Assembly: GCA_017609985.1 (NCBI GenBank)
Contig: JAFCCW010000002.1
Coordinates: 590 to 64,589 of the forward strand
Direction of reading: 5' to 3'
DNA: 64,000 nucleotides
Source: Candidatus Iainarchaeum sp.
Lineage (GTDB): Archaea > Iainarchaeota > Iainarchaeia > Iainarchaeales > JAFCCW01
Every line of letters starts with the position of its first letter. Position 1 is the stretch's first letter. The translations under genes and the position numbers were made by a program. Below are positions 10,212 to 48,308 of this stretch, in pieces. The notes under the pieces are model-generated. The model was not told where the DNA came from. It made no database searches and saw only the letters and a program-made list of their open reading frames with translations.

Positions 10212-10232
10212 TCGTGCTCCGAAAAAGGCAAA

Positions 10233-11240: not shown

Positions 11241-11267
11241 TTTTACTTATTTAATAGGGTGATTTTT

Positions 11268-22701: not shown

Positions 22702-22793
22702 GCAATCTCCCACTCCAAAAATGTAACCAAATGTTTATATACTCTATAAATATAAATATTGCATAATAAAAGCTTTAACACTGGTTTTGTTTT

Positions 22794-24017: not shown

Positions 24018-24030
24018 TAAATCACCAAAT

Positions 24031-24267: not shown

Positions 24268-24308
24268 GTTATCAACCAATAATCTATTCTTCTAACTGGT
24301 TTAAATGC

Positions 24309-24626: not shown

Positions 24627-24631
24627 TTTTC

Positions 24632-25048: not shown

Positions 25049-25052
25049 AGCT

Positions 25053-31000: not shown

Positions 31001-32042
31001 TAACTGTAAACGAAAGCTGTTGCTCGGCTTCTGAAACCACAGCAGTAATTCTTTTGTCCTTGCCTGCAGAAACAGTTATTTCTGTTCGCCCATCAGAACT
31101 GTATTCTGCTCCCTCGTCTGAAATAATCACGTCATAAATTCCTGGTTCAAGATTTCTGAAAACAGCCTGGGAACTATAACCTGAACTTTCCGAAATAACC
31201 AGACCTCCAAATCCATTCCATAACTCTACGTTAAAGGTTACTCCATATACTGCTTCCCCACTTTCGTCAACAATGTCAACAGTCAAAGAAGTTTTTTCTT
31301 CGTCTTCTTTTGGAGAAAGATTGATTATTTTGGACGAAGAATCAATAACAAAGCTCTCTGTTTTGAATCCCTTTGCACTAACTTCTGCTGAAAGAATCTC
31401 ACAGTTTATTGGGGGGAGAACAGTTAGTTCTCCGTTCATGGTAGAGTTAGTGTTTGGTGATGGGAAAACAACTGGATTGTCAATGCAGGTAAAATCAGCA
31501 TTAATTTCTTTTCCAGTCAGCGTGTTTCCTCCTGGAGACCGGAAATAAAGAGTTCTTGTTTTTGGAGTTACAATCAATTTTTTAAGGGAAATAACAATTG
31601 TTTCATTGCCCAGGATATCATATCCCTTTGAAAAAGCACTGTACTTCTCGCCCTCAACGATTAGTTCAGGAAGAGACAATTCAAGAAAGCTTTCAGGCAG
31701 AATTCCTTCAATTATTGTGCCTCCTTGTGCATCAGTTAACACTGTTCCCTCTACTCCATTAAGGGAATAGCTTATTTCAACATCTCTTAACTTTACTCCT
31801 GTTTCTGTTTCCAAAGAAATATTTGCAGAAAAACCAGCCTGCGTTGGAGCTGGAAGTGACAAGAAGATAATTATCAATAACAATAACAAAACAGCTGAAA
31901 ATAGGATAAAAGATGGAACAAATCTGTCAATCGGGTCAATGACCTTGTAAACAGGAATTGCTTCATTAATCTTGTCCAGTAACCCGTAGTACTTGTCTTC
32001 AAGAGACAGGTAAAGGTCTTTAATGTTTTCCAAAAAATTCAT
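25053..32042 (-). CDS. giant membrane-anchored surface protein, paralog GP2329
   Basis: Uninterrupted 2329-codon ORF in AT-rich DNA. N-terminus: LYLSLEDKYYGLLDKINEAIPVYKVIDPIDRFVPSFILF plus a TM helix. Many beta-sandwich repeats follow (e.g. FAVFDEEGLSVENARVYLMNAEND...TDSEGIASFENVGAGSYYGKA). The central hydrophobic segment is AGLGYQTMTALIAGPVGIIAGAIMVLLSLFGF. The C-terminal module has VYCDATQFSIML and SPFYYLPFNGRVGVESGNGRQGYGINY. Confidence 0.9.
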   Translation of the reverse strand: MNFLENIKDLYLSLEDKYYGLLDKINEAIPVYKVIDPIDRFVPSFILFSAVLLLLLIIIFLSLPAPTQAGFSANISLETETGVKLRDVEISYSLNGVEGTVLTDAQGGTIIEGILPESFLELSLPELIVEGEKYSAFSKGYDILGNETIVISLKKLIVTPKTRTLYFRSPGGNTLTGKEINADFTCIDNPVVFPSPNTNSTMNGELTVLPPINCEILSAEVSAKGFKTESFVIDSSSKIINLSPKEDEEKTSLTVDIVDESGEAVYGVTFNVELWNGFGGLVISESSGYSSQAVFRNLEPGIYDVIISDEGAEYSSDGRTEITVSAGKDKRITAVVSEAEQQLSFTVIDSESGEGLANSRIVLLSGGQEAGQTFTDGEGKAVIALTAVQEDQNLFVSVSMDGYITQEIEVLSLEEEIQILLVEATPSTSTTVQFAVFDEEGLSVENARVYLMNAENDSLVHFSSGDYVVTDSEGIASFENVGAGSYYGKAIKGRVSGENRESARQVDLEIEENSFEILLVIGNTLVEVHALNQQGIYVPDCLLSIIATDGELLREIPMTPEGIESFELKADRDVYLVVSNSQFMDYVSPKLLLLGGDTLKVEAILEPIIEGDYPVIEFIGAFQNGVETEHLQADKETTLRFFLKIPKNSGVESAGMHFRTGNETAYFDDLLYIRGVRAGSSSVVKGVSFNAPNSWSIDVKNLVDERDAGKWVNIVIEGDDIEEKTFDIEIDVKVKQDVARNSLFPVHYRAWGEKEELFYRMPEDPVIGMLRSSPEKGELYAETINLELSEGSAQECNENNFCYSGERVYGFDEELYLSSPYSLMVNSDYNISFSVFNNSDTRYNDFEFRISNKGIGGEQGDVLRMEKMKLVDADGLESEIQINEFEVEDIEVGGFEKKKSFTGVVLFEPVELKNSDLVLSLIADSTEVFKKAIGFEVSSQNLLQISAEPKSISAFTETDLKIIVQNEDEEYVDGASVSVTKIDAYRNSQRLAETETDEFGEAVFSLPSSSPGSVFIFEAKKKDYGRGTLAIAVDMNLIEINPEQIFSSLNTLTRTEEDNEISITSKSDIGLRIEGISFGGEMTEFLDLPRMNGWTNSFEGLSLSAGETETIVLKTILNEDMARLLSENVSSNGTAVLSLASDSLGLTWDVVIPINLHVSLGGLPDEECLEIVGNSVPNWNDSLLSGSKQIRFQITNHCIVDGTEIDLDGLKAKIEWADGSDRTASATLTLHDGITAEQTLGPVYSQMIESVPYGETLEGILTVTPHSSAQTSNLEFDVKIAGILKSGAGTGEVASTPEAIHGNIQVVSLQNCVSFEDAAVYLAEEDSTQSLKMPTISSAGTTTQFSIDTSDCGPIPVTIKLCKDDKDCAGGTEGGVNLLPKDFTLTQQSREVLVQRLHIPGIYGITVHARAPGTGWAKIGTVDVIVEPVASKFFSLDRYGPIELIGEGSESQVMLKNTGLSEEVQVNASVCQWQTMSNRSGEDFTSKIMAAGLGYQTMTALIAGPVGIIAGAIMVLLSLFGFGDDPCDQRHSEPMQATVINLIEDAESIQTGINKINAKWGWDNGTDYQPSVFGKWDYQTAIISFMNTGIEEEAASYSVMTITANRHFHDDPTVIPGGYLLNNDFGQMNVPDKEVKQHTEKIHMKFVTKQNEFQLPPSYLRAEKCVSDTAVGITGSNALPKVNYNWNWGGNGIGVSSCEETEDGDFVYCDATQFSIMLSYRLNALHEWLERNSTALECPASPRSAQRQEFEDAEDDLERNVSPGKVGLKNASHGFIGQDLQVNFEVENKSGETATATVTAEIISSPDGINLSSAQKKCSTVVSAIANGSSKTGSCSLPSIPEINSFYVMRISIASAQGVDSASPFTTPVLTPFVEDEECWMPFSTKLIDGRPAIAYFIEDAERRSTGIIEWTSEIPDIEALESLLKFNAALMKDGYSMDFQQDFASYYKDNMLLGTPDFFSGNSIDKFFSEGRLSFGLLGGQGKTLPGAGIYRVSIEGEFGEDWQLVSGGSPNADVKIALHKIGNPEFNSPFYYLPFNGRVGVESGNGRQGYGINYEGDGKPIKIASLNDLVETEEIQGSNPVFSVETSLEEDISSMNSVVSSRGKLLEVTGGASTDTPRIKFSPNKATPVLLKISGEKTEQAFSAFYQLVEAGVPQSKGTMMNFWSGAGLCFDFSGMPSSAVFSLTPDRAATAEDQLQNWQTAYALDWANAEKEGNVFLKTVFFTPVGKNYSLKSLSDSTLFITADEPAAPAIELEGISGMAHNSKSSSIDSISRVFSLVKEERVCLTNSGTRTVFWWNPETLYSAEGNNTSIEAFEEGLLGGETCIG

Positions 32043-32087: not shown

Positions 32088-35000
32088 CTATTTTCCAGTG
32101 ATGCAGTTGTTTAGAGCATTGTCTACATTGTCTTGCATTGATTCAAGAACTGGCTTTGGATTCCAAAAGAACATTGAGTGCATGCTGTTGTCATAACCGC
32201 TTACACAAACTTTTCCTTGTTTGACAAGTTCTAGAATGCGCTCGACATTTATTTCGTCTCCACCAGCATAATTGAAGGCTTGTCCTCTGACACCGTTCAA
32301 TAGGATGTTTTCTCCAACTGTTTCATCAGTAATCAGTGTCATTGAATCGCTTCCAGCAATTCTCTTCATTGAAGAGCTTTTTCCCTGTGGAGTAAACACA
32401 ACGCTTTCAACATAAATATTTCCGCTTCTCACTGGATTGCACCATTCAAGACCGAATGAAACAAGTGATGTTCCGCCAATCAAAGCACATTCTGCATCAA
32501 TTGCGTGCATGTCGTATCTGTCATCAAATGCATCAACTATTGGCTGGTCAAAGAAGTCTCTGCACTGTACTCCAACACCAGACCAAGGTAACAAGCCTCT
32601 TGAAGAGCCAGTCTGTGGTTCTCCTCCAACATCAATTGAATAAAATCCAAAAGCATCCTCTGCTTTTTCATGTTGAACATTCATCATCACTGGAGTTGCA
32701 TAGCTTGGACTCAGAGTCAACCTTGTTTCTGCAGCGCTTGTGTCAGTGATTAATCTTCTCACATCAAGCACAATTCCTCTCTTTTCATTGTTGAGCTTTG
32801 TGAAACTGTCTTCAAATCCTCCAAGCAGTTTTCCTGCAGCTGGATTGCTTCCAATAATTTCGCTTGTAATAACTCTCTGCATTGGATCACTGTTAATCTC
32901 AATTGGCTCTTGTGCTTCCTGCACATAATTAATTCCATATCTCTGCCTTCCATTATCTGAATCAATTCCAATTCTTCCATTGAATGGCAGATAATAAAAT
33001 GGAGAGTCTGGTTTTGGAGCCTTTTTTCTGAACAGGTTAACTGTTATCTTAGCCTGCATTTCCCCTCCGTTGAAGAGCTTCCAGTCGCTTACTCCCTCGT
33101 CAAATTCTATTTCAATTTTTGCCTCATAAACTCCTGCTTCTGCATAAGCTCCCTGGTTCACAAGAGGATAACTAAAAGAAAATCTGTTCTCTGAATCAAA
33201 GTATTTTCCAATTCCTTCTTCACCATCAGTATACCATGTTGGGGTGCCAAAGAATGAATTATTTATGCTGAACTCGTGGAAATCATGCCTTAAATCATCA
33301 GAATAACCATCTCTGACAAGCAATGCACTAAAACCATTTGCATAGGATAAGACCTGCTCTCTTGTTCCTGAAGGGAATGATACTCCTTCGTGCTCGCTTG
33401 CTTCTACAAAGTCCTGCAATCTGCTTAGCTTAAATGGCTCGCATTGAGTAATTCCGCTTGAACTAAAGTTTAGGTTGAGTGAAATTGAGTTATTCTCTGC
33501 CTCGTTGTCCTCACAATGCTCTTCGCTTGTGCAAGTTGACAAATTTGGAGTTGCTCTAGCGTTCAACACAAAATTTTCTGAGCCAGTTCCCTGTCTTTCC
33601 AGAACACATTCAACAGTCTTTGACTGTTTTGAAACTCTTTCAGCTGTTCCAGTGCAAGAATCAACAATGTTTCCGCTTGAGTTCTTGAGCTCCATTATGT
33701 ATCCAACATCAACCGAGCCCTGAATATTTGTTCCAATCGAAAGCACTGCCTTGACATTCTGTCCGTCCTTGCTCCAGGACATTCTAGTAATTCCAATATC
33801 CAGTTCGCTTTCGTGCAAGTCTTGGCTTTCCGAACTAAATTGTGCTCCAAGGCTTGGGCAGTAAAGTGAAGAACCATACTGATCAAGGAAATCCTTTACT
33901 TTCTTGAGTTTCTTCATTAAAGAAATACTGAACTGTGTTGCATCGCAATAAACATGGTCTTTGTTAAGCTCGTCGCATGCATCCTCTGGAATCTCTGACC
34001 AGTCCCATGCAAACACAATTTTTGGAGCAGCATCCTCTCCCGTGTTTCCAACAAGCTCTCCAAGCTGGCAGTTAATTCTTTCAACTGCTGGGCAAGGGAA
34101 CGTGTCCGGACCACATTCCTGTGCATGATATGAATTAAACTGGAGATTGAATTTTTCCTTGAAATCCTCTGTTTTGTCCTCGTCAATTGCAAGCTCTTTT
34201 GGAAGAGTTTTTCCATAACTTCTCTTGTAATCAAGTCTCTCTCCCGCTACTTTGAAAATTCTGAACAAAGGCTTTGAAGGATTGTCTTGAGTAATTCCTG
34301 TTTCGTTAATGAATGCAATTTCTCGGCTTCTCTCTTTCAGGCTCATATCTCCGCTTGCTTCCCCCCCAATTTGAATTCCAACATAGTTTTCCTTTGCTGC
34401 GCTAACAGAATACTGTTCGAGGTCTCGAACAGAGATATCCTCGTCTTCAACACTCTCCAAACCAGACTCTTTCAAAACAATCATTTCCTCGATTGAAAGA
34501 TCAGCTGCTTCAACAGGCCTTTCCATTGCAATAACTCCTTGTTTGCTGTAAGCATCAGTTGCATGATAGAGAACACCCCACAGTCCCCAAGTCCAAGGGT
34601 CTGGCTCGCCAAGGATAGTTGAACCCAATCCCATGAAAGCTCCGCCAAGTCCGCCGAGCAATCCTCCGCCGCTGCCTCCTCCGAGAATGCTGCCAGAGTC
34701 TCCTCCTCCGAAGAAGTTGAGATACGCTGTTGTTGGAATTTCGCCAAGAGCTTTTGCCTGAAGTGTGTTAACACATTTTTTTGTTGTATAATCACATTTT
34801 CCTGATTCACAATTATCATGATTGGCACAGGGTTCTCCAATTTTGGATTTTTCTTTTTCCAAAGGATTAGGCAATCCAACACCCGAGCTTGGTGCAACTT
34901 CTGCTCCTGCAACCGGTGTTCCTTCCATTCCAAGAAGTATGTTTTGAACTTCGTTTTCAAGATTGTTTATAAGTGTAAGTTGAGTTCCTTGAAGTTGTGC

Positions 35001-38000
35001 ATAGTCTGCTTTGTTTCTGTTCCAGGACTTGCTTTCTTGGTCAATAAAATATCTTAGATTTCTTGTTCCGCCAACAGTAACTGTAACAATATTGTCTGAT
35101 TGTCCAAGTGAATCAACTGAGAGCGTGGGGCTGCTATTGCCCATACTTGCCCTTGCTTGTGGAATCGCCTGATTAAATGCCTTGCTGAGATTTTCTGCAG
35201 TTACATTTTTTACATTTCCAAAACTAGCCTTTGTCACATTCGCTTGTCCTTGTCCATCATCTTTGTCGCCTAACCAGCCTAACAATGCCCAGATTAGCCC
35301 TCTTTGGAATCCGTCTTTTAGTGCGTCTGACCAGCTTCTTGTGTCTATTGTGACTCCTGTTACTCCCTTTGAATAGCATCTGTTGTGTAACTCTGCTACA
35401 TCATAACCGTTTTCTCCGTTGTCTTGTGGGAACACATCGTACTCATACTTGCTTAGTTCAATGCAGGAATCGCTTGGAGTAACAACTCTTACCATATCAA
35501 TTAACTGCATTTTCTTCTGGTCCTGTCCCTTGGCTCTGACATATATTGGGTATTGGCCTGGCATGTCTTCTGCTGTAACAGTTATTTTTTCGCTTCCGCT
35601 TCCTTCAAGTGAAAATTCTGTTTCGCTAAGTGTCAAATCTGATTCTATTTCAAAGCTTGTTGTTCCACCGCACTCGTGTGTTTCAATCTCAAACTCTCCT
35701 GTCTCGCCTTGTTTGATTTCAATTATATCATCTGATACAGAGATGCATTCTCTCAGGTTGACTGCTGAAATTTCAAACTCTAGTTCTGTTGAAAGTTTCT
35801 GCATTTCTCCTCCTGTTGGATTGCTTGCTTGGAATATTATCTTTCCGTTTGCTAGCCCGTTAACCTGTGGGTCTGGAGTGAAAGTTAACACTGAGCCCTT
35901 GCTGTCTTCTGCTTCAAACACTGGTTCAAATACACGATAGTATCCTGGTCTTAATTCTTTTGTTAGCTCACCCATCTTTAATCCAATTCTTCCAAGATGA
36001 TTGCTTTCCCATTCAATCTTTGCTTCAAGATTGTGGAGGGGGATTGGCTGGCCTCCAATAGTGCAGTTGTTTTGCACATCGAACGAGAGCTGAACAGGGT
36101 TTCCTTCAGTCATTGCTCTCCAGCTTGATTTTGTAACTTCAAGGCAGGCTGGGTCATCAACACTTCCTCCAATGTTCACGGAAACTTTAACTGGCACTTC
36201 GTATAACCATGTGTTGTCTCTTGTTCCAACCTCAATTAATAGCTTTCCTTCAACTGTCTTTCCTTCAAGTTGTCTTGAAGCAAATTCGCTTGTGTAAATT
36301 CTTGCAAGAAGTTCTCTTTTTTCTTCTTCTTCAATGTTTCCCCCAGTGTATGTATTAATCCAGTCATTTGCCTGAGACAAGTCAATTAGCTCATCAAAGT
36401 CGCCTTGGAATTCAAGGCTGTAAATTGTCAAATCATATGGTACAAGGTTTTCAATTGAGAACAGTTTTTCATCAACTTTTTTGGTTGTGACATTAACTGA
36501 GAAACCAATTGTATCTGGCTCTATTGAAATTATTTCGTCTGAAACAACAAGTTCGTATCTAAGCACTTTGTAGCCTGCTTTTTCAACTACTATGTAGAGT
36601 TTTTCTCCAGGTTGTTGTGCTGGCACGCTTAACACTGCTTTGCCCATTGAATTGCTTCTCTTTTCTGCAATTCTGTCTCCAAACCTGTCTTCAATGGATA
36701 CAAGCGCGTCTGCTATTTCTATTCCCTTTCCTTTTTCCTTGACTGTGACAGTTATCTCTTTTTCAATTCCTGCAACAAGTTTTTCTGGTTTTACTTCTAT
36801 TTCAAACTCTTTGCCTGCAACTGTGTTAATCAAAATTGTCTTGGAGTAAACAACCTGCAAATCACTCTTTGCCTGAATTGTGAGTGCCGAGCTTGCTTCT
36901 TCCTGTGGGATAAACTTGAATCTTCCGGAGAAAGAAGTTTTTGGTTCAAAATCCCCTATTTCAATCCAGCTACTTTCATATCCTGCCACGTTTCCGGAAA
37001 CAGGGTCTGCTTCTGCTTTTGTCACTGAATAGTTTCCTAAAAGTATTTTTTCTTCTGGATTTTCAAGCTTCAACAGTGCGTTTGGGTAACCATAAACTGG
37101 CAAATCACTGTTGTTAAGCACTGTGAATCTTAACTCATATCTTCTGAAAATTTCTGCTTCATATGAATCTGTAATTGAAGAAACAAGGTCTTCATCCAAG
37201 TCAATAATGCTTAGAGCATAGCAGAACTTGTCATCGCACACTTCTTTTATTCCAATTTCTAAATATTTTATGTTAGTGTTTGCATAGAGTGAATGTTTTG
37301 CTGAAGTCATCTCTGCTTCTCCAAGCTCGTTGTCAACTGGTGCTCGCTCCCAGATGTTTCCGTTTTTTATAGCCCAGCTTCTGTAATGTAACTCGAGCTT
37401 GTCGTTGATTGAAGCTGTTTTTCTGACTGTGAATTCTGCTTCAACCTGTGTTACTCCGCTTGTAATTGAGTCTCCTGTTAACTCTACATTAATCCATTTA
37501 GCTGAACCCTCGGTCACGTGCTCTATGTCTTGAGAATAATTATTTGGAGGGTTGAACGAGGTGCTTTTTACAATAATCTTGCTTCCTGGCACATTAACTT
37601 TTGTCAGGAAGAATTGTTCTCGCTCCATTGCATTCTTGCTTCCTGCTCTTACATGGAATCCAAGTCCAGTGTAATTGTCTCCAGAGCCTGTTTCAGGAAC
37701 CTGCAATTCAAACTTTGCAATATATTCTTCGTCTGGAGCAACAACTGTTACATTGTTTCCTTGCTTGTCAACTATTCCCACGAGTTTTAGCTCTGGTTTT
37801 CCAGAAATAATTCTTGGAATCATTTTTACATAAATTTCCTGAGTAGTGTTTGGAAGCACATCATATTCTTTTGAAGTAAAAGTTGCATAGCCATCTTTTC
37901 TTACAACAAAGTAAATACTCTTGTCTGCTTTTGAAGTGTATTCTTTGACACTGTTGCCGTCAGTAGTTGTTGTTCCAATTCTTTCCCCGCTGTCTGCATT

Positions 38001-39635
38001 GTAGAAAGTTACTGTTGTTACTCCAATTGGTTCTTTTGCACTATCTCTTGCGATAATCTTTATTGTTCCATCAGGAATAATCAGTGTTACTGTCAAAAGC
38101 TGCGGGTCATCTGACTTAGCAATGAACTTGATTGGGTCGCTCCAGTTAGAGTAGCTTCCCTTGAAAGCGAATGCCTTGTAGTCTCCGTTTTCAACTCCTC
38201 TGAATCTTGCTATTCCGTTGAGGTCAGTTGTTTTTGGAATCATTCCAAGAATAACAAATTCGTCTTCGTCGTAGAGATTAACTGTTGCATTCTTGACTGG
38301 CTCTCCGTCCTCGTCAATTACCAGCACGTTAAGGTCTGCTCCGCATAATCCTGGAGCAAATCTTGTCAGATAAATTGTGTAAATTGTTCCCCCTATGTCA
38401 AGCCCTGTTCTTGTGTTCATGCAGTAGTCTTCGTGGTCAGCACTAATCCAGAACGGCCCCTCTTCTGTCAGTGAAAATTCAACATATCCGTTTGAGTCAG
38501 TGAAAGCTGGTGCTTCTACTGCTTCGTCGTCTTTTCTCAGAATAATCATTGCATTGTCTATTTCGTCACTGCTAGTGCTGTCTCTTACTTTTATTTTTAC
38601 TTTTCCAAGAATTGTTTCGCTGACAACAACTTCCACAAGCTCTTCTGTTCCTGCTTCCAGAATAATTGTTCCTGATTCTGCAGAAGAATAACTATTGGAA
38701 GAGCCAACATTAATCGTGTAGTATCCTGCGTCAACGTTACTGAAGAGAACTATTCCTGTTGAAGTATCCTTTGTTCTGTAGGTTGCTCCAGAGTCTGCGA
38801 GGGAGAGAGTAACGTAAACATGCTCGTCAAGGAATTCCTGTCTGTCTGCATCAGTAAAAATCTTTACTCTGATGCTTCCTGTTTCTGCATCTGGATCCTC
38901 GCTTTTAAGATAGAGGGTAATCCTGTTTGAACCAGAGTTAAGTCTTCCGCCTTCTCTTAATTCATATCTGTCTGTCTGTGACCAAAGCTGTGTAATTTTG
39001 AGTCCCTGGCATTCGCTTGAAACCCTGACACTGAATCCGCCGGAAACAGGATTACTTACTGTTGGTGCAATAGTATTTGAAGAGTAAGTGCAGGCAAGCA
39101 CTATATTAACTGGGTCATTTACTGGGCTTCCGTACTCGTCAACAAAGTTAACTGTAACATCGTCATATTCGACTGGTTCAAGAGATTCTTCCAGAACTGC
39201 CGTGAATTCATAGTCTGCGCGGTCAATAATAAAACTGTCTGAAAAGTCTTCGTAACCATCTTTTTCAATGCTTATGCTTACGCTGTCTCCAACTTTTGCA
39301 TCTATGCCGTCAGTTATTGCATCAAGTCCTTTTGCAAGAACTGTCTTTTCTTCGCCTTCGCCAATAACATAGCTTACGCGTGTATTTGGCAAAGCATCTT
39401 TGTTCTCGTCTTCAACCGCAACCGTGAAAACAGCTGCTTGTTGAAAAATAAATGGAAGCACGAGGAAAAATATTCCAAGAATTATTAAAATAAAAAGCAG
39501 GATAAACAGGATAAAAGATGGAAAAACACGGTCTATTGGGTCAATTACTTTGTAAATCGGGATATATTGGTCAATCTTGTCAAGAAACTGATAATATCTG
39601 TCTTCAAGACTGTGATAAATGTCCTCAAGGCTCAT
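32088..39635 (-). CDS. giant membrane-anchored surface protein, paralog GP2515
   Basis: 2515-codon ORF. N-terminus: MSLEDIYHSLEDRYYQFLDKIDQYIPIYKVIDPIDRVFPSFILF plus a TM helix. Carboxypeptidase-regulatory-like repeats follow (LNVLVIDEDGEPVKNATVNLYDEDE...NGDYKAFAFKGSY). The central Gly-rich segment is GGGDSGSILGGGSGGGLLGGLGGAFMGLG. The C-terminal module has VYCDATQFSISL and SPFYYLPFNGRIGIDSDNGRQRYGINY. Confidence 0.9.
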   Translation of the reverse strand: MSLEDIYHSLEDRYYQFLDKIDQYIPIYKVIDPIDRVFPSFILFILLFILIILGIFFLVLPFIFQQAAVFTVAVEDENKDALPNTRVSYVIGEGEEKTVLAKGLDAITDGIDAKVGDSVSISIEKDGYEDFSDSFIIDRADYEFTAVLEESLEPVEYDDVTVNFVDEYGSPVNDPVNIVLACTYSSNTIAPTVSNPVSGGFSVRVSSECQGLKITQLWSQTDRYELREGGRLNSGSNRITLYLKSEDPDAETGSIRVKIFTDADRQEFLDEHVYVTLSLADSGATYRTKDTSTGIVLFSNVDAGYYTINVGSSNSYSSAESGTIILEAGTEELVEVVVSETILGKVKIKVRDSTSSDEIDNAMIILRKDDEAVEAPAFTDSNGYVEFSLTEEGPFWISADHEDYCMNTRTGLDIGGTIYTIYLTRFAPGLCGADLNVLVIDEDGEPVKNATVNLYDEDEFVILGMIPKTTDLNGIARFRGVENGDYKAFAFKGSYSNWSDPIKFIAKSDDPQLLTVTLIIPDGTIKIIARDSAKEPIGVTTVTFYNADSGERIGTTTTDGNSVKEYTSKADKSIYFVVRKDGYATFTSKEYDVLPNTTQEIYVKMIPRIISGKPELKLVGIVDKQGNNVTVVAPDEEYIAKFELQVPETGSGDNYTGLGFHVRAGSKNAMEREQFFLTKVNVPGSKIIVKSTSFNPPNNYSQDIEHVTEGSAKWINVELTGDSITSGVTQVEAEFTVRKTASINDKLELHYRSWAIKNGNIWERAPVDNELGEAEMTSAKHSLYANTNIKYLEIGIKEVCDDKFCYALSIIDLDEDLVSSITDSYEAEIFRRYELRFTVLNNSDLPVYGYPNALLKLENPEEKILLGNYSVTKAEADPVSGNVAGYESSWIEIGDFEPKTSFSGRFKFIPQEEASSALTIQAKSDLQVVYSKTILINTVAGKEFEIEVKPEKLVAGIEKEITVTVKEKGKGIEIADALVSIEDRFGDRIAEKRSNSMGKAVLSVPAQQPGEKLYIVVEKAGYKVLRYELVVSDEIISIEPDTIGFSVNVTTKKVDEKLFSIENLVPYDLTIYSLEFQGDFDELIDLSQANDWINTYTGGNIEEEEKRELLARIYTSEFASRQLEGKTVEGKLLIEVGTRDNTWLYEVPVKVSVNIGGSVDDPACLEVTKSSWRAMTEGNPVQLSFDVQNNCTIGGQPIPLHNLEAKIEWESNHLGRIGLKMGELTKELRPGYYRVFEPVFEAEDSKGSVLTFTPDPQVNGLANGKIIFQASNPTGGEMQKLSTELEFEISAVNLRECISVSDDIIEIKQGETGEFEIETHECGGTTSFEIESDLTLSETEFSLEGSGSEKITVTAEDMPGQYPIYVRAKGQDQKKMQLIDMVRVVTPSDSCIELSKYEYDVFPQDNGENGYDVAELHNRCYSKGVTGVTIDTRSWSDALKDGFQRGLIWALLGWLGDKDDGQGQANVTKASFGNVKNVTAENLSKAFNQAIPQARASMGNSSPTLSVDSLGQSDNIVTVTVGGTRNLRYFIDQESKSWNRNKADYAQLQGTQLTLINNLENEVQNILLGMEGTPVAGAEVAPSSGVGLPNPLEKEKSKIGEPCANHDNCESGKCDYTTKKCVNTLQAKALGEIPTTAYLNFFGGGDSGSILGGGSGGGLLGGLGGAFMGLGSTILGEPDPWTWGLWGVLYHATDAYSKQGVIAMERPVEAADLSIEEMIVLKESGLESVEDEDISVRDLEQYSVSAAKENYVGIQIGGEASGDMSLKERSREIAFINETGITQDNPSKPLFRIFKVAGERLDYKRSYGKTLPKELAIDEDKTEDFKEKFNLQFNSYHAQECGPDTFPCPAVERINCQLGELVGNTGEDAAPKIVFAWDWSEIPEDACDELNKDHVYCDATQFSISLMKKLKKVKDFLDQYGSSLYCPSLGAQFSSESQDLHESELDIGITRMSWSKDGQNVKAVLSIGTNIQGSVDVGYIMELKNSSGNIVDSCTGTAERVSKQSKTVECVLERQGTGSENFVLNARATPNLSTCTSEEHCEDNEAENNSISLNLNFSSSGITQCEPFKLSRLQDFVEASEHEGVSFPSGTREQVLSYANGFSALLVRDGYSDDLRHDFHEFSINNSFFGTPTWYTDGEEGIGKYFDSENRFSFSYPLVNQGAYAEAGVYEAKIEIEFDEGVSDWKLFNGGEMQAKITVNLFRKKAPKPDSPFYYLPFNGRIGIDSDNGRQRYGINYVQEAQEPIEINSDPMQRVITSEIIGSNPAAGKLLGGFEDSFTKLNNEKRGIVLDVRRLITDTSAAETRLTLSPSYATPVMMNVQHEKAEDAFGFYSIDVGGEPQTGSSRGLLPWSGVGVQCRDFFDQPIVDAFDDRYDMHAIDAECALIGGTSLVSFGLEWCNPVRSGNIYVESVVFTPQGKSSSMKRIAGSDSMTLITDETVGENILLNGVRGQAFNYAGGDEINVERILELVKQGKVCVSGYDNSMHSMFFWNPKPVLESMQDNVDNALNNCITGK

Positions 39636-40316: not shown

Positions 40317-43300
40317 TCATTCTTCTTCTTTTTTTGGTTCGACTTCTTCTGCTAACTCTTCAGCTGTTTTTCCAATGTTTTCAAAATCAAGGTTTTCTCT
40401 TGCCCAAACAAGACTTATTCTTGAAGATGATGTGTCCTTTATGCACACTCTTCTGTCCTTTACCATATCCAAGTAGGTTTTTATTGACTGGTATTTTGTT
40501 GAATCCTTTATCTTCAAGCTTGTGTCTCCTTTTCTATAACCTGGAGTGAACTCTTTTGGTACTGGCATCTTGCCCATCTGCCTTGCAGTAATGTTTGACT
40601 TTCCCTGCGTGCAGTAAACTGAAAGCAAATACTCTTTGTTGTATGGAAGCAGTGCAACTGTGTTGTAGGTTTGTATTCCTTCAATTTCTTTTACAAATCC
40701 ATAATGGCTTTCTCCAATTTCTTCACAAATGTTTGCTGCTTCTTTTTGTGAAACAAGCTTATCAGTGATTGTGTCACTTGCTGACTTCCATTCAAATAAG
40801 TGTGCTGAACCATAACTTGGCTCTTTTGATGCAGCATCCAAAATTTCGTAAAGCAGTCCCTCGCTTCCAGTTTCTTCTTCTCCGTATCTGTCAGCTATTT
40901 CTAGCTTGAGTGCAACTGGATAAGATGGATTGTAAGTAATCTGTTTGCTTTCAACATGGAATATCATGCCTGAATTAGCATTTGCATAGTCTTTGTTGAC
41001 TTCTCCTAGATAGTTTGCAAGAGCTCCTGTTCCTTTGAATACAGCTTGTTTTTCTGCTTCTGAAGAGTAATTCAATAGCATTTCACTTATGTCTGCTTCT
41101 GAGCTTACAGCAACACCATATCCTTGTCTTGTGCCGTCTGCTAAACCAAGCTTTCCGTCAAAAGGCATCTTGAAGAAGATGTTCTTTGCATAAGCTGAAT
41201 CAATTTCTGAAAGAGCCTGCTCTCTTGAAAGATTAATTTCTATCTCTCTGTTTTCCCAGTTGTAGTTTACCTTAACTGAGTATTTTCCTGCTGAGTGCTT
41301 TCCAGTATTTTTCTCATCAACACTGAAATCCCAGTTTGTGACTCCGCCAACAAGCAATCTTTCTGCAAATCCAGTGCTGTCAAAGTCTGACTTGAAGTCT
41401 TCACTGAAACCGTCTTCCATCAAATAAGATTCAAATGAGATATCCTGATAGTAAACTTTTTCAAGCTCTCCTGTGTCAAGTCCCTGCCTGTTCTTTCCGT
41501 TCTTGAGAATAATCTCTATTTCCCCATCAGTCATTTCTTCTTTTTCTCTTATTCCGTTCACAAACCTGATGTTCTTGAGCAGGGTGTTCATGAATTCTCC
41601 GGTTGCAGTAATCTTGGTTGAACCATTCTTTTCAAGCAATCCATCAATATAGCATGTTTCAATATCTGTTTCACAGCTTCCAATGCTTTTGTCTGCTTTG
41701 ATTCTCTTCATTGCTGATTCTAACTGGTTGTGGAAGTTCTTCCATTCTCCGTAAGCCATTACATAGCCGATTCCTTCAACTTCCTTTGCACCCATTTTGT
41801 AGAGCTTTGGTTCGCTGTTATAAAATTTCTCAGTATCTGAATTCTTTTCAACAACTGCAACAATATTCTTTGCTTTTCCTCTTTCCTCTAGCTTGCCAAA
41901 CACTTGTGACATCTGAGTAATTATTGTTTTTATGTCTGAGCTTCCCTCGGGAATATCAATAATTTCTGCAAGACTCTTTGCAGTCTCATAGTCTTCAATA
42001 TTGAGTTTTTCTCCCTCCAGCACTCCGCTCTCGCTTTCAAAGAACACCAGAGTCTTGTTGTTCTTGTTGTCAAATATCTCAAACTGTTCCTTTGCCCATC
42101 TGTAAATATTCTCTGTGTTTTTGTAATCATCAAGGCAGCTGTCTTCGCTTTCATCTCCTTTTTCACATAATGCTCTCTTCAGCATCTTTGCGTGCTCTGT
42201 GTCTTTTATAACTGAGTCAATCTTTTCAATATAGGTTTTGATTGAGTCAACTTTTTTGTCAAGTGTCAGGGTAAACTGTGCTGCATCACAAAAGTTCGTT
42301 GCTCCTTCTTCTTCAATAAATCCTTCTTTTGGTTCATCACAAGCACTTTTTATAATATTGGATGAATCCCAGTCAAATAATAGTCTGTCAAAGCCATATT
42401 CATTGAATGCTCCTGTTCCAGTTTTTCCTCCTTCTCCGCAGTCAAAGGAAGCTGTTCCAATGCTTGTTTGAATTTGTCTCTGGCAGTCTCTCCACATTTT
42501 GTTAATCTGCTCGTCAGTGAATCCCTCGTTTGCAGCTTCCTGTGAAAACACGTCTTTTTCAAGATTCTTCTCAACACATTCTGCAATTAAGTCTCTTTCC
42601 TTCTGTGAATAGTATGGCTCGTCTTCACAGGTTTTCAAAAAGTCTGCATCAACCTGTGTCAAGTCAATTCCCTCGTTTAACACCCAAACTTTTACTGGAA
42701 TATTAACGCGTTGTGTTCCAACATTGTGTGTTGCTCTTGTGAGGTCTGATGACAGTCTTGTTTCAATTCTTGCACACATCATTGTCATGCTACTTCTGTC
42801 AATAGTCAGCTTTACATTGTGTCCATTGTCAATAACTGAAAATCCTAACATTACTCCACTTTTTTCATGAGTCCAGGTTACTGGTCTCAGGTTTGCAAGC
42901 TTGTCTAATGCTCCACAGAAATTTGGTGAAATTTTCATAACCTTGTTTGGGGTTGGAATAAACTCGTAGTCTCCGATTTCAAATTCTGTGTCTGGCACAA
43001 AACCCCATTTGTCTTCTTCTCCAAAGCCTTTTGCCATCCAGTACTCTACAACATTCAGTGCTCCTGTGTCAATGCAGTCCTGGAATTGAGTAATTGCTGG
43101 ATTGCCCCCTTCATATGGTTCAAGATATGGTCCTGCAAGGAACAAGTCCTCTATAACCACAGGAATATTTGTTGTGTTCTTTTGCTTGAAAGAATCATAA
43201 TAATTTACTTTTGCTGTTCCTCTTGCCTGAACTCTAAAATAAGCTTCTTGTGCATAAGCTCTTAGCTGTCCAATCTGAGTAAATGTTTTTCCCTTAAGCT

Positions 43301-46300
43301 GTAATGCTGCTCTTTCCCTGTAATCAATGTTTGGCTTTATTTCAAGTTCTACAACCTGCACTATTCCTCCGCCTGGAGCTGCCTGCCTGCTTTCTCCAGC
43401 AAACCATATTTGGTCAACAAGCTTACAGGTTCCCTCTGCATCGTATTTTGCCGGAACAGACGCATTTAAACTGCTTCTCTCCTTTAATACGGCTTGCTTT
43501 TCTGCCTCGCTTGTTAATTCTCCATAATTCTTTCCAAATAGTTTTTGAGCAATTCCATCCAGTTCTCCTCCGCCGGCTGCATTAGCTGTTGTTTCCCTCT
43601 GAGGTTCTGGCAAGTCTGGCAGTCCTGGGCAGTCAATTGAAAGAGTTTGAGCATTATCCTGCAAGTGCACTCCAGTGTCATAACAGTAGTTGTAAACCTT
43701 GACTCTTAATGGTCTTCCAATTATGTCTGTTAATTTTAATTTGCTTGGAGGCACAATCTTTATGCAGTCCTTGTCCATAAAGCCCTGAGTTGTAATCATC
43801 ACATTTATTTCTCTGACTTTTTTGTGCTTTTCCTCGCTTCCTGCAAGTCTTGCTTTTACTTCTACAGAAAACCTGCCCATTCTGTATCCTGGGATAAGAG
43901 TGATGTTTTCTCCATCGCCAGAGGCAAGTTCTATTTCTTCTTTGTCTGAGTTAAGATAAGGTCCTGTTTCAAGCTTTATTTCAACATCTTTTCCGCAATC
44001 GTTTTCAATGCTTATCATCTGCTGGCCGTACTGCCATTGATTGTAGTAAGAGCTGTCAAATTGGTTTAAAAATCCTGGCCCCATACTGTATGCTGGATTT
44101 GGATAACTTCCATAAGCCATTCCTGACTGATAAGCTGTTGTTCCAGTAGAACTTCCTCCAAAAGGATAAGGTGTTGTCCAGCCATAAGCATTGCTTGTTG
44201 ACCCAGTCATGTTTCTTGGGTCCTGGTTTGCAAGCAACAGAGTATCCTCGCTTAATTTGTCTGAAAATCCAGCCCAAGGGCTTGAATTAGTGTAATAATT
44301 TGATGCTCCGTAGCTTCCACCATAAACATTTGGATTATATCCCAGCTGTGAATACATTCCATAGCCTGTGCTGATTGGTGCTGCAACAAGCTGAATTGGT
44401 TCAGTCATTTTAAACTTCAGGCACTGAGTTAAGTCATTAACTGAAACACTTGCATTAATTTGTCCTGTTAATTCTTCGTTTCCGTTGTCAGTTATATTAA
44501 CTGCTTTAAACACGATGTTCGGGTTTGATTCTCCTGACTCAATATCTTCTTCCGGGTCAAAAGTGAATGTAAATTCTACTTCTCTTCCTGCTTCAATAAA
44601 TTCTGTGAGCGGTCTGGAAGTTTCAGTTATCTTTGTTGAACTTATTCCAAGCTCTGAAGAAGCAACACTGAATTCTCCCAACAGGTTTTCTTCTCCGCTT
44701 TTTTCAATAGCAATTTCAATATTTCTCAAAGGCGTGTTCACTCCGTTTACCTTGCAGTTGTTTCTCAGAGTTGATGTCAAAACCTTTTTCTGTGTGTCTG
44801 TTTCAATGCTCCATTCAAATGGTTCAAACTCAATACAGTTTGGTTCGTCAACTTCTCCGCCCAGCCCGATTCTGACGCTTACCGGCAGTGTAACAATCCA
44901 GTCTTTTTTGAAAACAGGGTTTGTAAGAGTAATCTCAATTACTCCTTCAAGAGTTGTTGTTTCTTCAACAAGCAATCCCTGCCTTGTAAGCGAAACAACT
45001 AATCCCAGGATTTTTTCTTCTGATTCCTCTCCTTCAATTTCTGCGCCCTCAACAGGGTCAAGGTCAATTGTCTGTCCCCTGTAATCTTCTGCCCAGTTAA
45101 ATTCTACTAATCCTTCAAAGTTCTCACTAATTTCAATTTCCTTTATAGTGAAAGGAATTGTTGAAAGATTCTCTGCAAGAATAGGTGTTTCTTTGCTTAA
45201 CACACTGTTAGTATTCAATAACACTGAAAGAAGCGGGGGTGTAAGCAAAACCACGTTCTCCTCGATATTTATCTCAACGCCAGCTGTTGCATAGTCTGAT
45301 TTTTCTGCAATAATTCTGACTACGTCGCCTGAATTCGGAGCCTCTAATTCATAACTATAAACTCCCTCTGAGCTGGTGATTCCCCCGCCAATTCTTTCAC
45401 TGTTCACATACACTGAAACAGTTGCGTTTCCAAGGTCTTCTTCCTCGCTTGAAACATGCACAAGAATTGTGTTGTCAATAAATGGAACAATAATTTTTGG
45501 CAGAATGTCTATTGACATGGTTTTTGGAGCAGGCACATCAACATAGATTTTTTTCTCAAAAACAGTGCTTCCTTCACTGCTTTGAATTTCTACTGAAAGT
45601 TCCTGCATTCCAGCTGTTTTTGTTTTGAACAAGATATTTCCTGAAACAGTTGAACCATTTGCAATAGTGCTTATTCCTGTTTCAAGTTCGTATCCTGAAG
45701 CATTTCCTGAAATTACTTTCCCGCTTGCATCCAGGATACTGTAGTCTTCGAGCTCAAGGCTGTTTGAAGTACTGGAAATCTTTATTTTTGAATTTGTAAA
45801 CACGCTGGAGGAAATGCTTGAAAAATCAAAGTATAGTCTATAGCTCTTGTCAAGTTTTGCATTGTAAGAAGAAATAACTGAAGTAAGTTCTCCAGTGGAC
45901 GTGTCCTGTATTTTGAATTCCTTGCAAAAGCTTGCAGTACAGGAAGAAATTCCTCCAACAGCATAACTCTCTCTTAACAGCTGAGCATAAAATCCCTGCT
46001 TTGTTGCAACTGAGCCAGCAGAACCAAGCTCTGAATCTTGCGGGCTTCTTGCATACTTTGCATTTGAATAAACCCAAGCTCTTCTTCCGATTTTAAGAGT
46101 GCCTGAAATTTCTGCTCCAGCATTAACCTGGAACAAAACATCAATTTCATAATCTCCTGGTTCTGGATTGTTCCATAAAACTTCTGCCCATTTTGCAGAA
46201 CCAGATGTCAGATTCTGTCTGTCCTGAGAATATCCTCCTGGTGGAGAATAACTTGTCCCCCGTGCAGTTGACTTTGCGCTTGAATAAACCTTGTAAATAA

Positions 46301-48308
46301 ACAATCCATCATTTTCCATGATATTTGTTTTTTCAAAACCTGTTTCTCCTGCAACAATCAATGCTCCTGCTTGTTCTGCATCAATACCCTGTGGGATTGA
46401 AAGAATATATTTTCCAGTATAAAGCTGTCCTTCAACAAGTGAAGACCCGCTCTGCACTCTCTCGTCTCCGAAAAACATTCCAAGAGGTTTTAATTCAAGC
46501 TTTGCAGTTGGTTGGGAGAGAACAACATCAAACACCCGAGTTTCTCCCTCTTTTGTTGACATTGAAGGGGTATTGTAAGCTGCATAACTGCTTTCATCTA
46601 TTCTGAAGAAAACTACTTCATCTTCTCTAACTTTAATAATTGCTTTTCCTTCACTGTCTGCTATAGCGCTTGAAAGAACAGCTCCGGTTACTGCATCTAT
46701 CTTCTCTACTTTTGTTCCAGGAACAGTTTCTCCTGTTTCATTCTTTACATTTACTTCTGCTGTTCCGCTTCCAATGCTTAGCGTTATTTTCAGGCTTGAA
46801 ATTTTTGAAGCAATAATTGTTTCCTGTTCTGAAACACTCGGAGGAAAACTTGACTTTTTTGCTTCAACATAAACTCGCAAGCCCTCTTCAAGAGTATACT
46901 CTGCCTTGCCATCAGAACCAGTTGCTTTTGAATCATCAATTACGGTGTGGTCATCAGCATCCTTCAAGACAAGCATTGCTCCCTGAATTGGCAAGCCCTC
47001 TAAGTCAACAACTTCTATTTCGAGGAAGCCAGTGTTTGAAATATCCTCTGTTGAAATAAAAACCTGAACAGTGCTGCTTCCAGTCAGGGTAGTTGATGTT
47101 CTTGCAGTTATATATCCTGATTTTTCAACACTGATATTGTAAACTGCATTTGAAGGCAAATCAAAAGAAGCCTCTCCGCTTGAATCGCTGTACTTTGGTC
47201 CTGCAATCTTGTAAGACTGCTCGTTCCTGATTTCAATCATTGCAGACTGCACTGCACTTTTTGTGTCTGCATCAATAATCTTTACTGTGAGCTTTGAGCT
47301 TGTAGTGCTCTCCATTACTGCATCAAAGCTTGCAACAGAATCCTTTGAAATCTGTTTAGAGGTTGTAGTAAGAGGCTTGTAAGTTCCCTCGCTGTCGGAT
47401 GCAACAAGATAGTAGCTTCCAACATCAATGTCAAGGAATTCAACTGTTCCGCTTGTATTAGAGTATTTTTCTCTTGCCTTAAAACCGTCAGAAGAATAAA
47501 TTTGCACAAGAATATTTGAAAGAGGGTCTCCGTCAGCATTCTTTACTGAAACATAAGCGCTTCCCTTGTCCACTGTTCTTGGCTCAAGCAAAACTTCCGG
47601 CGCAGTTCCTGAAAGAGAAATTCTGCCATACACGACTGTATAATTATCTCCCACTATGTCAACAACAAGCTCTCCGCAGTCTGAAGGAATATTGTCAATT
47701 CTTATTTCTCCGCCGACAACCTGCTTTTGTTCAAAAAACTCAGAGTTTGAAGTACAGTCAAAGTTTGCAAAAAGACTGTCTGAAAGAAGCTGCTGTGTTT
47801 CAGAATTTTTGAACTTAATTGTTTTTGAAACTAAAGTAATTTTTGGGTCAAGCCTTATTTTTTTGGAAAACTCAGCATAGTCTTCCGGAATTGTAAAAGT
47901 TTCAGTTGCATCCTCGTAATCTGTTGGAGCAGTAATGTTTAGCGTAATTTCCTGCCCAATAGGGGCATTAAATTTTGCCTGTCCGTCTGAAACAGAAACA
48001 GTAGTCGGTGCATTGTCTGCCCAGCGATATGAAATATCAAAGCTATTGTTAATGCTGTTTCCAGACTGGCTGTCTGCAAACGAAAGAACAACACTTGACT
48101 GGCCTCCAAACAGGTTCATTCCGCCTGCAAGGAAAAAGATTCCAAAAAGCAACAGCAAAACAACAAGAACAAAGACTGGGAATGAGGGGATATTGCTGGC
48201 TTCTATTGCATCGACAAGCCCGTAAACAGGCACTCCTTTTTCATCAAGCCAATCAAGAAATCCATAGTACTTGTCTTCAAGGCTATAGTAAATGTCCTTC
48301 AGTCCCAT
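40317..48308 (-). CDS. giant membrane-anchored surface protein, paralog GP2663
   Basis: 2663-codon ORF. N-terminus: MGLKDIYYSLEDKYYGFLDWLDEKGVPVYGLVDAIEASNIPSFPVF plus a TM helix. Beta-sandwich repeats follow. The central segment is a G/S/Y-rich low-complexity region. The C-terminal module has NFCDAAQFTLTL and FFKMPFDGKLGLADGTRQGYGVAV. Confidence 0.9.
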   Translation of the reverse strand: MGLKDIYYSLEDKYYGFLDWLDEKGVPVYGLVDAIEASNIPSFPVFVLVVLLLLFGIFFLAGGMNLFGGQSSVVLSFADSQSGNSINNSFDISYRWADNAPTTVSVSDGQAKFNAPIGQEITLNITAPTDYEDATETFTIPEDYAEFSKKIRLDPKITLVSKTIKFKNSETQQLLSDSLFANFDCTSNSEFFEQKQVVGGEIRIDNIPSDCGELVVDIVGDNYTVVYGRISLSGTAPEVLLEPRTVDKGSAYVSVKNADGDPLSNILVQIYSSDGFKAREKYSNTSGTVEFLDIDVGSYYLVASDSEGTYKPLTTTSKQISKDSVASFDAVMESTTSSKLTVKIIDADTKSAVQSAMIEIRNEQSYKIAGPKYSDSSGEASFDLPSNAVYNISVEKSGYITARTSTTLTGSSTVQVFISTEDISNTGFLEIEVVDLEGLPIQGAMLVLKDADDHTVIDDSKATGSDGKAEYTLEEGLRVYVEAKKSSFPPSVSEQETIIASKISSLKITLSIGSGTAEVNVKNETGETVPGTKVEKIDAVTGAVLSSAIADSEGKAIIKVREDEVVFFRIDESSYAAYNTPSMSTKEGETRVFDVVLSQPTAKLELKPLGMFFGDERVQSGSSLVEGQLYTGKYILSIPQGIDAEQAGALIVAGETGFEKTNIMENDGLFIYKVYSSAKSTARGTSYSPPGGYSQDRQNLTSGSAKWAEVLWNNPEPGDYEIDVLFQVNAGAEISGTLKIGRRAWVYSNAKYARSPQDSELGSAGSVATKQGFYAQLLRESYAVGGISSCTASFCKEFKIQDTSTGELTSVISSYNAKLDKSYRLYFDFSSISSSVFTNSKIKISSTSNSLELEDYSILDASGKVISGNASGYELETGISTIANGSTVSGNILFKTKTAGMQELSVEIQSSEGSTVFEKKIYVDVPAPKTMSIDILPKIIVPFIDNTILVHVSSEEEDLGNATVSVYVNSERIGGGITSSEGVYSYELEAPNSGDVVRIIAEKSDYATAGVEINIEENVVLLTPPLLSVLLNTNSVLSKETPILAENLSTIPFTIKEIEISENFEGLVEFNWAEDYRGQTIDLDPVEGAEIEGEESEEKILGLVVSLTRQGLLVEETTTLEGVIEITLTNPVFKKDWIVTLPVSVRIGLGGEVDEPNCIEFEPFEWSIETDTQKKVLTSTLRNNCKVNGVNTPLRNIEIAIEKSGEENLLGEFSVASSELGISSTKITETSRPLTEFIEAGREVEFTFTFDPEEDIESGESNPNIVFKAVNITDNGNEELTGQINASVSVNDLTQCLKFKMTEPIQLVAAPISTGYGMYSQLGYNPNVYGGSYGASNYYTNSSPWAGFSDKLSEDTLLLANQDPRNMTGSTSNAYGWTTPYPFGGSSTGTTAYQSGMAYGSYPNPAYSMGPGFLNQFDSSYYNQWQYGQQMISIENDCGKDVEIKLETGPYLNSDKEEIELASGDGENITLIPGYRMGRFSVEVKARLAGSEEKHKKVREINVMITTQGFMDKDCIKIVPPSKLKLTDIIGRPLRVKVYNYCYDTGVHLQDNAQTLSIDCPGLPDLPEPQRETTANAAGGGELDGIAQKLFGKNYGELTSEAEKQAVLKERSSLNASVPAKYDAEGTCKLVDQIWFAGESRQAAPGGGIVQVVELEIKPNIDYRERAALQLKGKTFTQIGQLRAYAQEAYFRVQARGTAKVNYYDSFKQKNTTNIPVVIEDLFLAGPYLEPYEGGNPAITQFQDCIDTGALNVVEYWMAKGFGEEDKWGFVPDTEFEIGDYEFIPTPNKVMKISPNFCGALDKLANLRPVTWTHEKSGVMLGFSVIDNGHNVKLTIDRSSMTMMCARIETRLSSDLTRATHNVGTQRVNIPVKVWVLNEGIDLTQVDADFLKTCEDEPYYSQKERDLIAECVEKNLEKDVFSQEAANEGFTDEQINKMWRDCQRQIQTSIGTASFDCGEGGKTGTGAFNEYGFDRLLFDWDSSNIIKSACDEPKEGFIEEEGATNFCDAAQFTLTLDKKVDSIKTYIEKIDSVIKDTEHAKMLKRALCEKGDESEDSCLDDYKNTENIYRWAKEQFEIFDNKNNKTLVFFESESGVLEGEKLNIEDYETAKSLAEIIDIPEGSSDIKTIITQMSQVFGKLEERGKAKNIVAVVEKNSDTEKFYNSEPKLYKMGAKEVEGIGYVMAYGEWKNFHNQLESAMKRIKADKSIGSCETDIETCYIDGLLEKNGSTKITATGEFMNTLLKNIRFVNGIREKEEMTDGEIEIILKNGKNRQGLDTGELEKVYYQDISFESYLMEDGFSEDFKSDFDSTGFAERLLVGGVTNWDFSVDEKNTGKHSAGKYSVKVNYNWENREIEINLSREQALSEIDSAYAKNIFFKMPFDGKLGLADGTRQGYGVAVSSEADISEMLLNYSSEAEKQAVFKGTGALANYLGEVNKDYANANSGMIFHVESKQITYNPSYPVALKLEIADRYGEEETGSEGLLYEILDAASKEPSYGSAHLFEWKSASDTITDKLVSQKEAANICEEIGESHYGFVKEIEGIQTYNTVALLPYNKEYLLSVYCTQGKSNITARQMGKMPVPKEFTPGYRKGDTSLKIKDSTKYQSIKTYLDMVKDRRVCIKDTSSSRISLVWARENLDFENIGKTAEELAEEVEPKKEEE

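Follow-up and report, generated by a model that had tools for sequence, protein, structure and literature searches.

The 64,000 nucleotides (nt) analysed here (hereafter the window) belong to Candidatus Iainarchaeum sp. (contig JAFCCW010000002.1, positions 590 to 64,589) and encode, on the minus strand, four giant surface proteins that share an N-terminal module. These are GP2329 (2329 amino acids (aa), 25053..32042), GP2515 (2515 aa, 32088..39635), GP2663 (2663 aa, 40317..48308, identical to the public protein P0005) and GP3374 (3374 aa, 50331..60455, identical to P0121), the latter three being paralogs of GP2329. The minus-strand translations of all four open reading frames (ORFs) begin with Y-x3-E-D-K-Y-Y-x2-L-D ... 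P-V-Y-K-V-I-D-P-I-D ... P-S-F, directly followed by a hydrophobic stretch of ~20 residues (Kyte-Doolittle 19-residue maxima of 3.05-3.61). When all ORFs of 50 aa or more in the six frames of the window were searched with a hidden Markov model (HMM) of the module, made from family N-termini, only these four matched (E-values of 9e-18 to 2e-26). The initial annotation, made from the letters of the window, had already described the motif in strings that the translations reproduce exactly, as well as the helix immediately behind it, and its picture of a conserved block (~40-45 residues) in front of one N-terminal hydrophobic helix is confirmed here.

In GP2515 the module comprises residues 1-41 (MSLEDIYHSLEDRYYQFLDKIDQYIPIYKVIDPIDRVFPSF; 39513..39635, minus strand, as are all features of the giants; HMM E 2.1e-26), with helix 1 at residues 3-24 and helix 2 at residues 28-37; the putative signal-anchor helix covers approximately residues 42-66 (39438..39512; Kyte-Doolittle 3.61, helix 40-69 in the AlphaFold2 model). 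The module of GP2329 spans residues 1-45 (31908..32042; E 3.6e-26) and its hydrophobic helix approximately residues 46-63 (31854..31907; 3.22), while GP2663 has a 'GVP...IPSFP' variant in residues 1-43 (48180..48308; E 1.3e-25), with the helix at approximately residues 44-62 (48123..48179; 3.05). The module of GP3374 (60309..60455; E 9.4e-18), located from its translation and from the DNA around the start, is the most divergent of the four, helix 1 being kept and helix 2 being swapped for GIPADSYNSFLEEKGIPAFP; its hydrophobic helix lies at approximately residues 50-69 (60249..60308; 3.07). For GP3374 the start codon may be either GTG at 60455 or one of the TTG codons that lie 6-9 nt further downstream.

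A shared DNA 15-mer, GTACTTGTCTTCAAG, which holds the codons for LEDKY, had also been noted by the initial annotation; it does exist, but at 31989-32003 and 48267-48281 rather than at 31991-32005 and 48274-48288. The mean column identity of the module DNA of the four giants is only 67%, with many synonymous differences, and the similarity is therefore maintained at the protein level. The same identity and synonymous differences rule out recent gene conversion among the paralogs as the source of the N-terminal likeness.

The relationship between the giants is not confined to their N-termini. They are paralogs over most of their length (22-30% identity across 800-1460 residues), and all 104 long module-bearing proteins examined join in one BLAST component through homology of their bodies, chiefly via the first ~1000 residues, i.e. 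the stalk of CarboxypepD_reg/immunoglobulin-like (Ig-like) domains. Pfam PF13620 and related domains are found in all four giants, and the general architecture of the family is module, transmembrane (TM) helix, CarboxypepD_reg/Ig-like stalk and variable distal region, GP2329 ending in a conserved C-terminal region. The two giants of archaeon GW2011_AR10 (AR10 below) pair with GP2515 and GP2329, respectively, and since orthology is this clear across genomes, the duplication must be old. The giants of the window thus owe their module to common descent, as old paralogs within one family. The recognition tag suggested by the initial annotation has to be qualified accordingly: with paralogy over more than 1000 aa and 104 linked long members, the module is an inherited family hallmark and not a tag that unrelated proteins have in common.

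Within this family the module is the best-conserved part. Its 35-residue core (Y...PSF) has a mean pairwise identity of 63% among 91 long members, whereas the median identity of the body regions is 24.6%, meaning that the module stayed conserved while the bodies drifted to ~25% identity. In the same 91 proteins Y1, E5, Y9, D13, P20, D29 and P33 of the core are invariant, and Y22, S34 and F35 nearly so (97-99%). The AlphaFold2 model of GP2515 residues 1-70, computed from a 41-sequence alignment, has a mean pLDDT of 93.7 and consists of three helices (residues 3-24, 28-37 and 40-69), the first of which is amphipathic (hydrophobic moment 0.37-0.48, versus 0.20 +/- 0.10 for shuffles). Past P-S-F follow 19-20 uninterrupted, almost purely apolar and never charged positions (108 members), then a short stretch (~8 positions) in which Gly, Pro and small residues abound, and subsequently the first beta-strand of the ectodomain.

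To establish how far the module extends beyond the window, a profile was searched exhaustively against 1.84 billion representative proteins, which returned 1041 clusters at E<=1e-3, of which 586 reached E<=1e-10. This profile was built from eight sequences that included the four N-termini of the window, so that GP2663 (P0005, E 6e-23) and GP3374 (P0121, E 1e-17) match it partly by construction; independent support is provided by the hundreds of other proteins that score as well, i.e. those in the 586 clusters. Among the matches listed (the best 150 of the 1041 clusters, the top 146 of them for start position and length), the motif starts at a median residue of 11 and lies more than 30 residues from the annotated start in only eight proteins, while 93 are at least 1000 aa long, the longest having 3374 aa. 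The short matches, where traceable, stem from very short or error-rich contigs. The module is thus found almost only at the N-termini of very large proteins, in line with what the initial annotation had anticipated. Word-index homology searches with the motif gave few short fragments, as hydrophobic words swamp the candidates.

When one genome for each GTDB species was scanned with the pattern [VI]YKVIDPI, on the basis of the eight-sequence alignment, 57 loci were obtained, the complete genome of AR10 being among their sources (loci outside the window are given below as L-numbers). Their labels are almost all Candidatus Iainarchaeum, Diapherotrites or unclassified archaeon, and 13 of the 57 contain two or three tandem module-bearing large ORFs. 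Two loci with other labels, L007 ('Chloroflexi') and L026 ('Thaumarchaeota'), are probably mis-binned, because neighbouring gene families common to Iainarchaeota loci are found there as well (many in L007, few in L026). It had been proposed that the motif might be sought throughout archaeal and Candidate Phyla Radiation (CPR) proteomes, but the genome matches are those of Iainarchaeota (Diapherotrites, DPANN) and not of archaea or CPR at large. No relatives of the module were present among the IMG/VR viral contigs.

The module does not correspond to any of the known families against which it was compared. The N-terminal 120 residues of the four giants gave no match in Pfam-A or NCBIfam, even at E<=10, so that none of the signal or anchor families held there is hit; a profile search of PDB sequences gave only noise for the module, and Foldseek found no match in the PDB for the model of its first 70 residues. 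A search of the literature did not turn up a description of the motif or the family, and the source annotations read 'hypothetical protein' or 'carboxypeptidase regulatory-like domain-containing protein [Candidatus Diapherotrites]'. The module is an undescribed domain, known so far almost only from Iainarchaeota, and its role is a putative, though plausible, one.

Not every member of the family has retained (or acquired) the module. The positional orthologs of GP2329 in L061 (140-7483) and L063 (100-7434), which are also the best matches of GP2329 (912 and 991 summed bits), start with a short tail and TM helix without it, and the ortholog in L060 (43-7407) keeps helix 1 only (MALIDIYYSLEDWLYDRGIDP, followed by the TM helix). 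The module must thus have been gained or lost within the phylum, and its loss in some orthologs indicates that it is accessory to the anchor and not the anchor itself. In L062 (4258-5807), an IS605 OrfB/TnpB gene is immediately preceded by a 59-aa ORF that is a remnant of the N-terminal module (HMM E 2.6e-17). The two form an insertion that separates the giant from the small membrane genes described below, as though a transposon had disrupted a giant gene.

Relatives of 800-1680 aa are encoded in the loci of this family as well (L039 9539-14194, L043 8861-13909, L053 8618-13276, L010 16412-19144 and others), which share the ~400-residue C-terminal domain of the giants (residues 1917-2306 of GP2329) and start with short, basic, cleavable-looking canonical Sec signal peptides. 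The distal domain is therefore deployed in a tethered form and, probably, in a secreted form, and the module plus long helix constitutes a separate N-terminal class that fits tethered rather than released proteins. At the C-terminus of GP3374, NlpC/P60, Amidase_3 and Glucosaminidase domains stand in a row (residues 2869-3315; 50511-51851, minus strand). For an archaeon without murein of its own, these hydrolase domains point to action on bacterial cell walls, which fits the 'vampiristic' DPANN lifestyle that was proposed for Woesearchaeota (PMC9723730).

The N-terminus is not a twin-arginine (Tat) signal (S/T-R-R-x-F-L-K), as neither the four N-regions nor any column of the family profile contains RR. 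It also differs from a canonical cleavable Sec signal, which has a short basic n-region, an h-region of 7-15 residues and small residues at -3/-1, whereas here the n-region has ~45 aa and a median charge of -2 and the h-region 19-20 residues. In proteins with a type II signal-anchor, a single N-terminal hydrophobic helix of ~20 residues separates an N-tail in the cytoplasm from a C-terminal part that is large and extracytoplasmic, and a folded N-domain disfavours translocation of the N-tail. The module proteins indeed have a single N-proximal hydrophobic helix of TM length, and GP2515 and GP2663 possess no hydrophobic segment beyond it. The initial annotation had regarded the pattern as not being that of a Sec, Tat or class III signal peptide; this stands for the twin arginines and for a [KR][GA] junction, both of which are lacking, but 'not Sec' is too strong, because a 20-residue hydrophobic core behind a cytoplasmic N-region looks like a signal-anchor inserted via signal recognition particle (SRP) and Sec. 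The type II signal-anchor is, however, only a generic topology class, which leaves the invariant residues and the lineage restriction of the module unexplained.

The reading that we favour, with slightly better than even confidence, is that the module is a lineage-specific, structured cytoplasmic extension of the signal-anchor on giant surface proteins. Its first part is an amphipathic helix spanning ~22 residues, with the core IYYSLEDKYYxxLDKI; a second, short helix (VYKVIDPIDK) and the invariant P-S-F lead into the hydrophobic helix of ~20 residues, which would be inserted by the general SRP/Sec route and remain uncleaved. The acidic two-helix domain would stay in the cytoplasm, fix an N-in/C-out orientation and keep the giant ectodomain attached to the membrane of the cell itself. 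The invariant aromatic, acidic and proline residues could then form a common handle for all paralogs, serving either self- or hetero-association of the anchors or the binding of a shared factor, which need not be encoded nearby. This topology is supported by the content of the ectodomains (Ig-like/CarboxypepD_reg domains, plus the peptidoglycan hydrolases in GP3374) and by the uncharged apolar core; the 15 residues before the helix have more K/R than the 15 after it (1.97 versus 1.18), although the N-region as a whole is net acidic.

Several observations weigh against this reading. The net acidic N-region (median charge -2 among the listed profile matches) is not favoured by the positive-inside rule, and the stretch rich in Gly, Pro and small residues, 20-28 residues after P-S-F, could hold a cleavage site. 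The orthologs in L061 and L063 demonstrate that anchoring as such does not need the module, and the analysis yielded no partner for it. Furthermore, the taxonomic range derives from one strict pattern ([VI]YKVIDPI), which divergent variants elsewhere could escape. Separately, two of the giants have an extra hydrophobic segment deep in the supposed ectodomain, namely GP2329 (residues 1497-1525; 27468-27554, minus strand) and GP3374 (residues 2166-2187; 53895-53960, minus strand), each of which could be either a second membrane pass or a buried core.

The main rival explanation, which we regard as unlikely though worth serious consideration, is that of an extended cleaved signal peptide, in which signal peptidase removes the whole ~70-residue unit and the extension tunes targeting or slows the translocation of very long passengers that fold slowly, which is what has been proposed for ESPR in type V secretion. 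The Gly/Pro/small stretch after the core, with the first Ig-like strand following within ~10 residues, resembles the boundary between an h- and a c-region, and there is a precedent in ESPR (PF13018), a conserved 25-residue extension on some large secreted proteins (PMC8151025). However, the core is of TM length (19-20 apolar positions, with the AlphaFold2 helix running from 40 to 69), the signal peptides of neighbouring proteins are canonical and much shorter, and if the unit were cleaved, GP2515 and GP2663 would have no other hydrophobic segment to hold them on the cell.

In ESPR, as in the module, a conserved extension precedes a hydrophobic export core; it is phylogenetically restricted and confined to some of the very large proteins that are secreted or displayed on the surface. 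Export by way of ESPR signals can usually be achieved by their hydrophobic part on its own (PMC8151025), which is paralleled by the module-less orthologs of GP2329. In contrast, ESPR is bacterial, has ~25 residues and is part of the cleaved signal peptide of outer-membrane autotransporters, whereas the module is archaeal, acidic and ~45 residues long, with a predicted two-helix domain and a helix of TM length behind it. PF13018 did not match any of the four N-terminal 120-aa segments (hmmscan against Pfam-A, E<=10), and the setting differs from type V secretion, given the archaeal context, the Ig-like stalks without a beta-barrel translocator and the TM-length core. In Gram-positive bacteria, YSIRK-G/S and KxYKxGKxW are N-region motifs of export signals that mark large surface adhesins, YSIRK directing the site of secretion. 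Both differ from the module in being short basic motifs inside cleaved bacterial signal peptides; searches of Pfam and NCBIfam at E<=10 gave no match to YSIRK (PF04650) or KxYKxGKxW (TIGR03715) either, and the giants of the window lack an LPXTG cell-wall sorting context. By analogy, the module may resemble ESPR, YSIRK and KxYKxGKxW in role, but it is not homologous to them. The genomic arrangement has a bacterial parallel as well, in that Giant1-5 of Apilactobacillus kunkeei are surface proteins of 3000-8000 aa encoded by several consecutive genes, which occupy a considerable fraction of the small genome (PMC12863079); these, however, have ordinary Sec/SPI signal peptides and unrelated domains, and no conserved cytoplasmic module.

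Less likely than the extended signal peptide, and in our view improbable, is plain paralogy, according to which the module was simply inherited and is conserved only through the generic constraints of membrane insertion. Common descent itself is not in dispute, as homology extends past the module in the four giants and in all 104 long members, and it is also true that the module can be lost from orthologs that retain just a simple tail and the TM helix. What this explanation does not account for is the pattern of conservation: generic insertion does not need invariant Y, E, D and P at fixed positions, nor would it lead one to expect 63% identity in the module versus ~25% in the rest, or a defined fold predicted by AlphaFold2 with very high confidence.

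The remaining alternatives concern the genes around the giants. The order of the array is GP3374, p599, GP2663, tm151, GP2515, GP2329, five small membrane ORFs, an opposite-strand coiled-coil gene and p501. The first of the interspersed genes, p599 (599 aa; 48472-50271, minus strand), lies between GP3374 and GP2663 and has no Pfam match; its homologs in L025, L027 and L001 have a class III (prepilin-like) start, KG|FNLFSALVA, where the copy in the window reads RA|FNMFTALVA, which implies that a large pilin-like protein belongs to the giant-gene array. Between GP2663 and GP2515 lies tm151 (39745-40200), a protein with four TM helices that recurs between giants in L003, L004, L027, L031 and L035. 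The five small membrane ORFs (82-142 aa; 23371-25060, minus strand) have two to three hydrophobic segments each in a simple hydropathy scan, and the start of the first and the stop of GP2329 share 8 nt. Clear homologs of four of these ORFs occur, in unchanged order, in AR10, L017 and L060-L063. By sequence, nothing significant was found in Pfam, NCBIfam or PDB for p599, tm151, the five small TM proteins, p501 and p704.

At the end of the array, p501 (501 aa; 21208-22713, minus strand) is kept next to the array in seven Iainarchaeota genomes. The small membrane genes, the coiled-coil gene and p501 together follow the last giant in AR10, in L017 and on four further contigs, one of which is from Candidatus Iainarchaeum andersonii. 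Although p501 itself has no significant Pfam match, some of its homologs match DUF87, and its AlphaFold2 model (pLDDT 85.8) resembles the HerA hexameric translocases (Foldseek E ~1e-12, TM ~0.45). A role for p501 as a dedicated motor was set aside: its family alignment is without a canonical Walker A (consensus TIVxGGxxxDRxH), an opposite-strand gene lies between it and the array, and the housekeeping genes of its block are equally syntenic.

The most far-reaching proposal is that the module is a cytoplasmic docking tag that gathers several giant Ig-stalk proteins, one of which ends in three peptidoglycan hydrolases, at one membrane site, where they would form, together with the pilin-like p599, the conserved small membrane proteins and the HerA-fold protein that lacks a canonical P-loop, a new kind of archaeal surface organelle for attaching to, and breaching, bacterial hosts or prey. 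We give this only a small chance of being correct.

More doubtful still, and not supported by the observations, is the narrower proposal that the module is a tag for an adjacent partner, i.e. the five small membrane proteins and/or the 4-TM protein tm151. This follows the initial annotation, which had named the co-encoded small membrane proteins as candidates. The small membrane genes come directly after GP2329, with the overlap mentioned above, this arrangement is kept in all seven genomes in which that end of the array is visible (the window, L004, L017 and L060-L063), and the 4-TM protein recurs between giants in the five loci listed. However, in L061 and L063, where the module is absent, and in L060, where half of it is left, the same five small membrane genes are intact immediately downstream. 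Conversely, most module-bearing genes lie elsewhere and have no such neighbours within 10 kb (e.g. in loci of the L038/L012 type). A second common type of locus (L007, L009, L012, L038, L040, L046, L048 and others) encodes a single module protein of ~1800 aa, whose neighbours include a Hel308-type helicase, a nucleotidyl transferase and a Yip1-domain protein; the small proteins are all absent there. The flanking genes for PolB, methionine aminopeptidase, TrkAH and HisRS are, moreover, just as syntenic, and adjacency alone therefore carries little weight.

Finally, we give hardly any credence to a long class III leader, cut at P-S-F on the cytoplasmic face by a prepilin-type peptidase so that the giants assemble into a pilus-like fibre: the conserved junction does lie exactly at the cytoplasmic end of the hydrophobic helix, where class III signals are likewise recognised and processed, and p599, with its genuine class III-type N-terminus in homologs, is inside the array, but the junction is the invariant P-S-F and not [KR][GA], a structured leader of ~45 residues is unlike the short, charged leaders of archaeal class III signals, and the window contains no discernible prepilin peptidase or assembly ATPase, the HerA-fold p501 lacking a canonical Walker A.

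Two further observations concern other parts of the window. At 7437-7542 (minus strand), Rfam finds a 106-nt tRNA that was missed by ARAGORN, and its length suggests an intron-containing archaeal tRNA. The ~1.6 kb between tRNA-His and the TrkA gene (9840-11480) contains only dubious overlapping ORFs, and at E<=0.01 nothing in Rfam matched it.

A life attached to other cells is generally assumed for DPANN archaea, yet little is known of how they build their contact surfaces. The giant family fills ~33 kb, i.e. about half of the window, while the whole genome of AR10 is ~1.24 Mb. As the hallmark of a large 'dark' family of DPANN proteins, the module provides, through its HMM, a search key for these giants even in fragmented metagenomes. 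It also offers a handle on the insertion and organisation, in archaea, of proteins longer than 2000 residues, and it may represent an archaeal equivalent of the 'marked' signal sequences that giant adhesins carry in bacteria. There is some chance that it points to a new surface-assembly system. Should the module be a docking tag of an apparatus for attack or attachment, it would open a route into the cell biology of the interaction between Iainarchaeota and their hosts.

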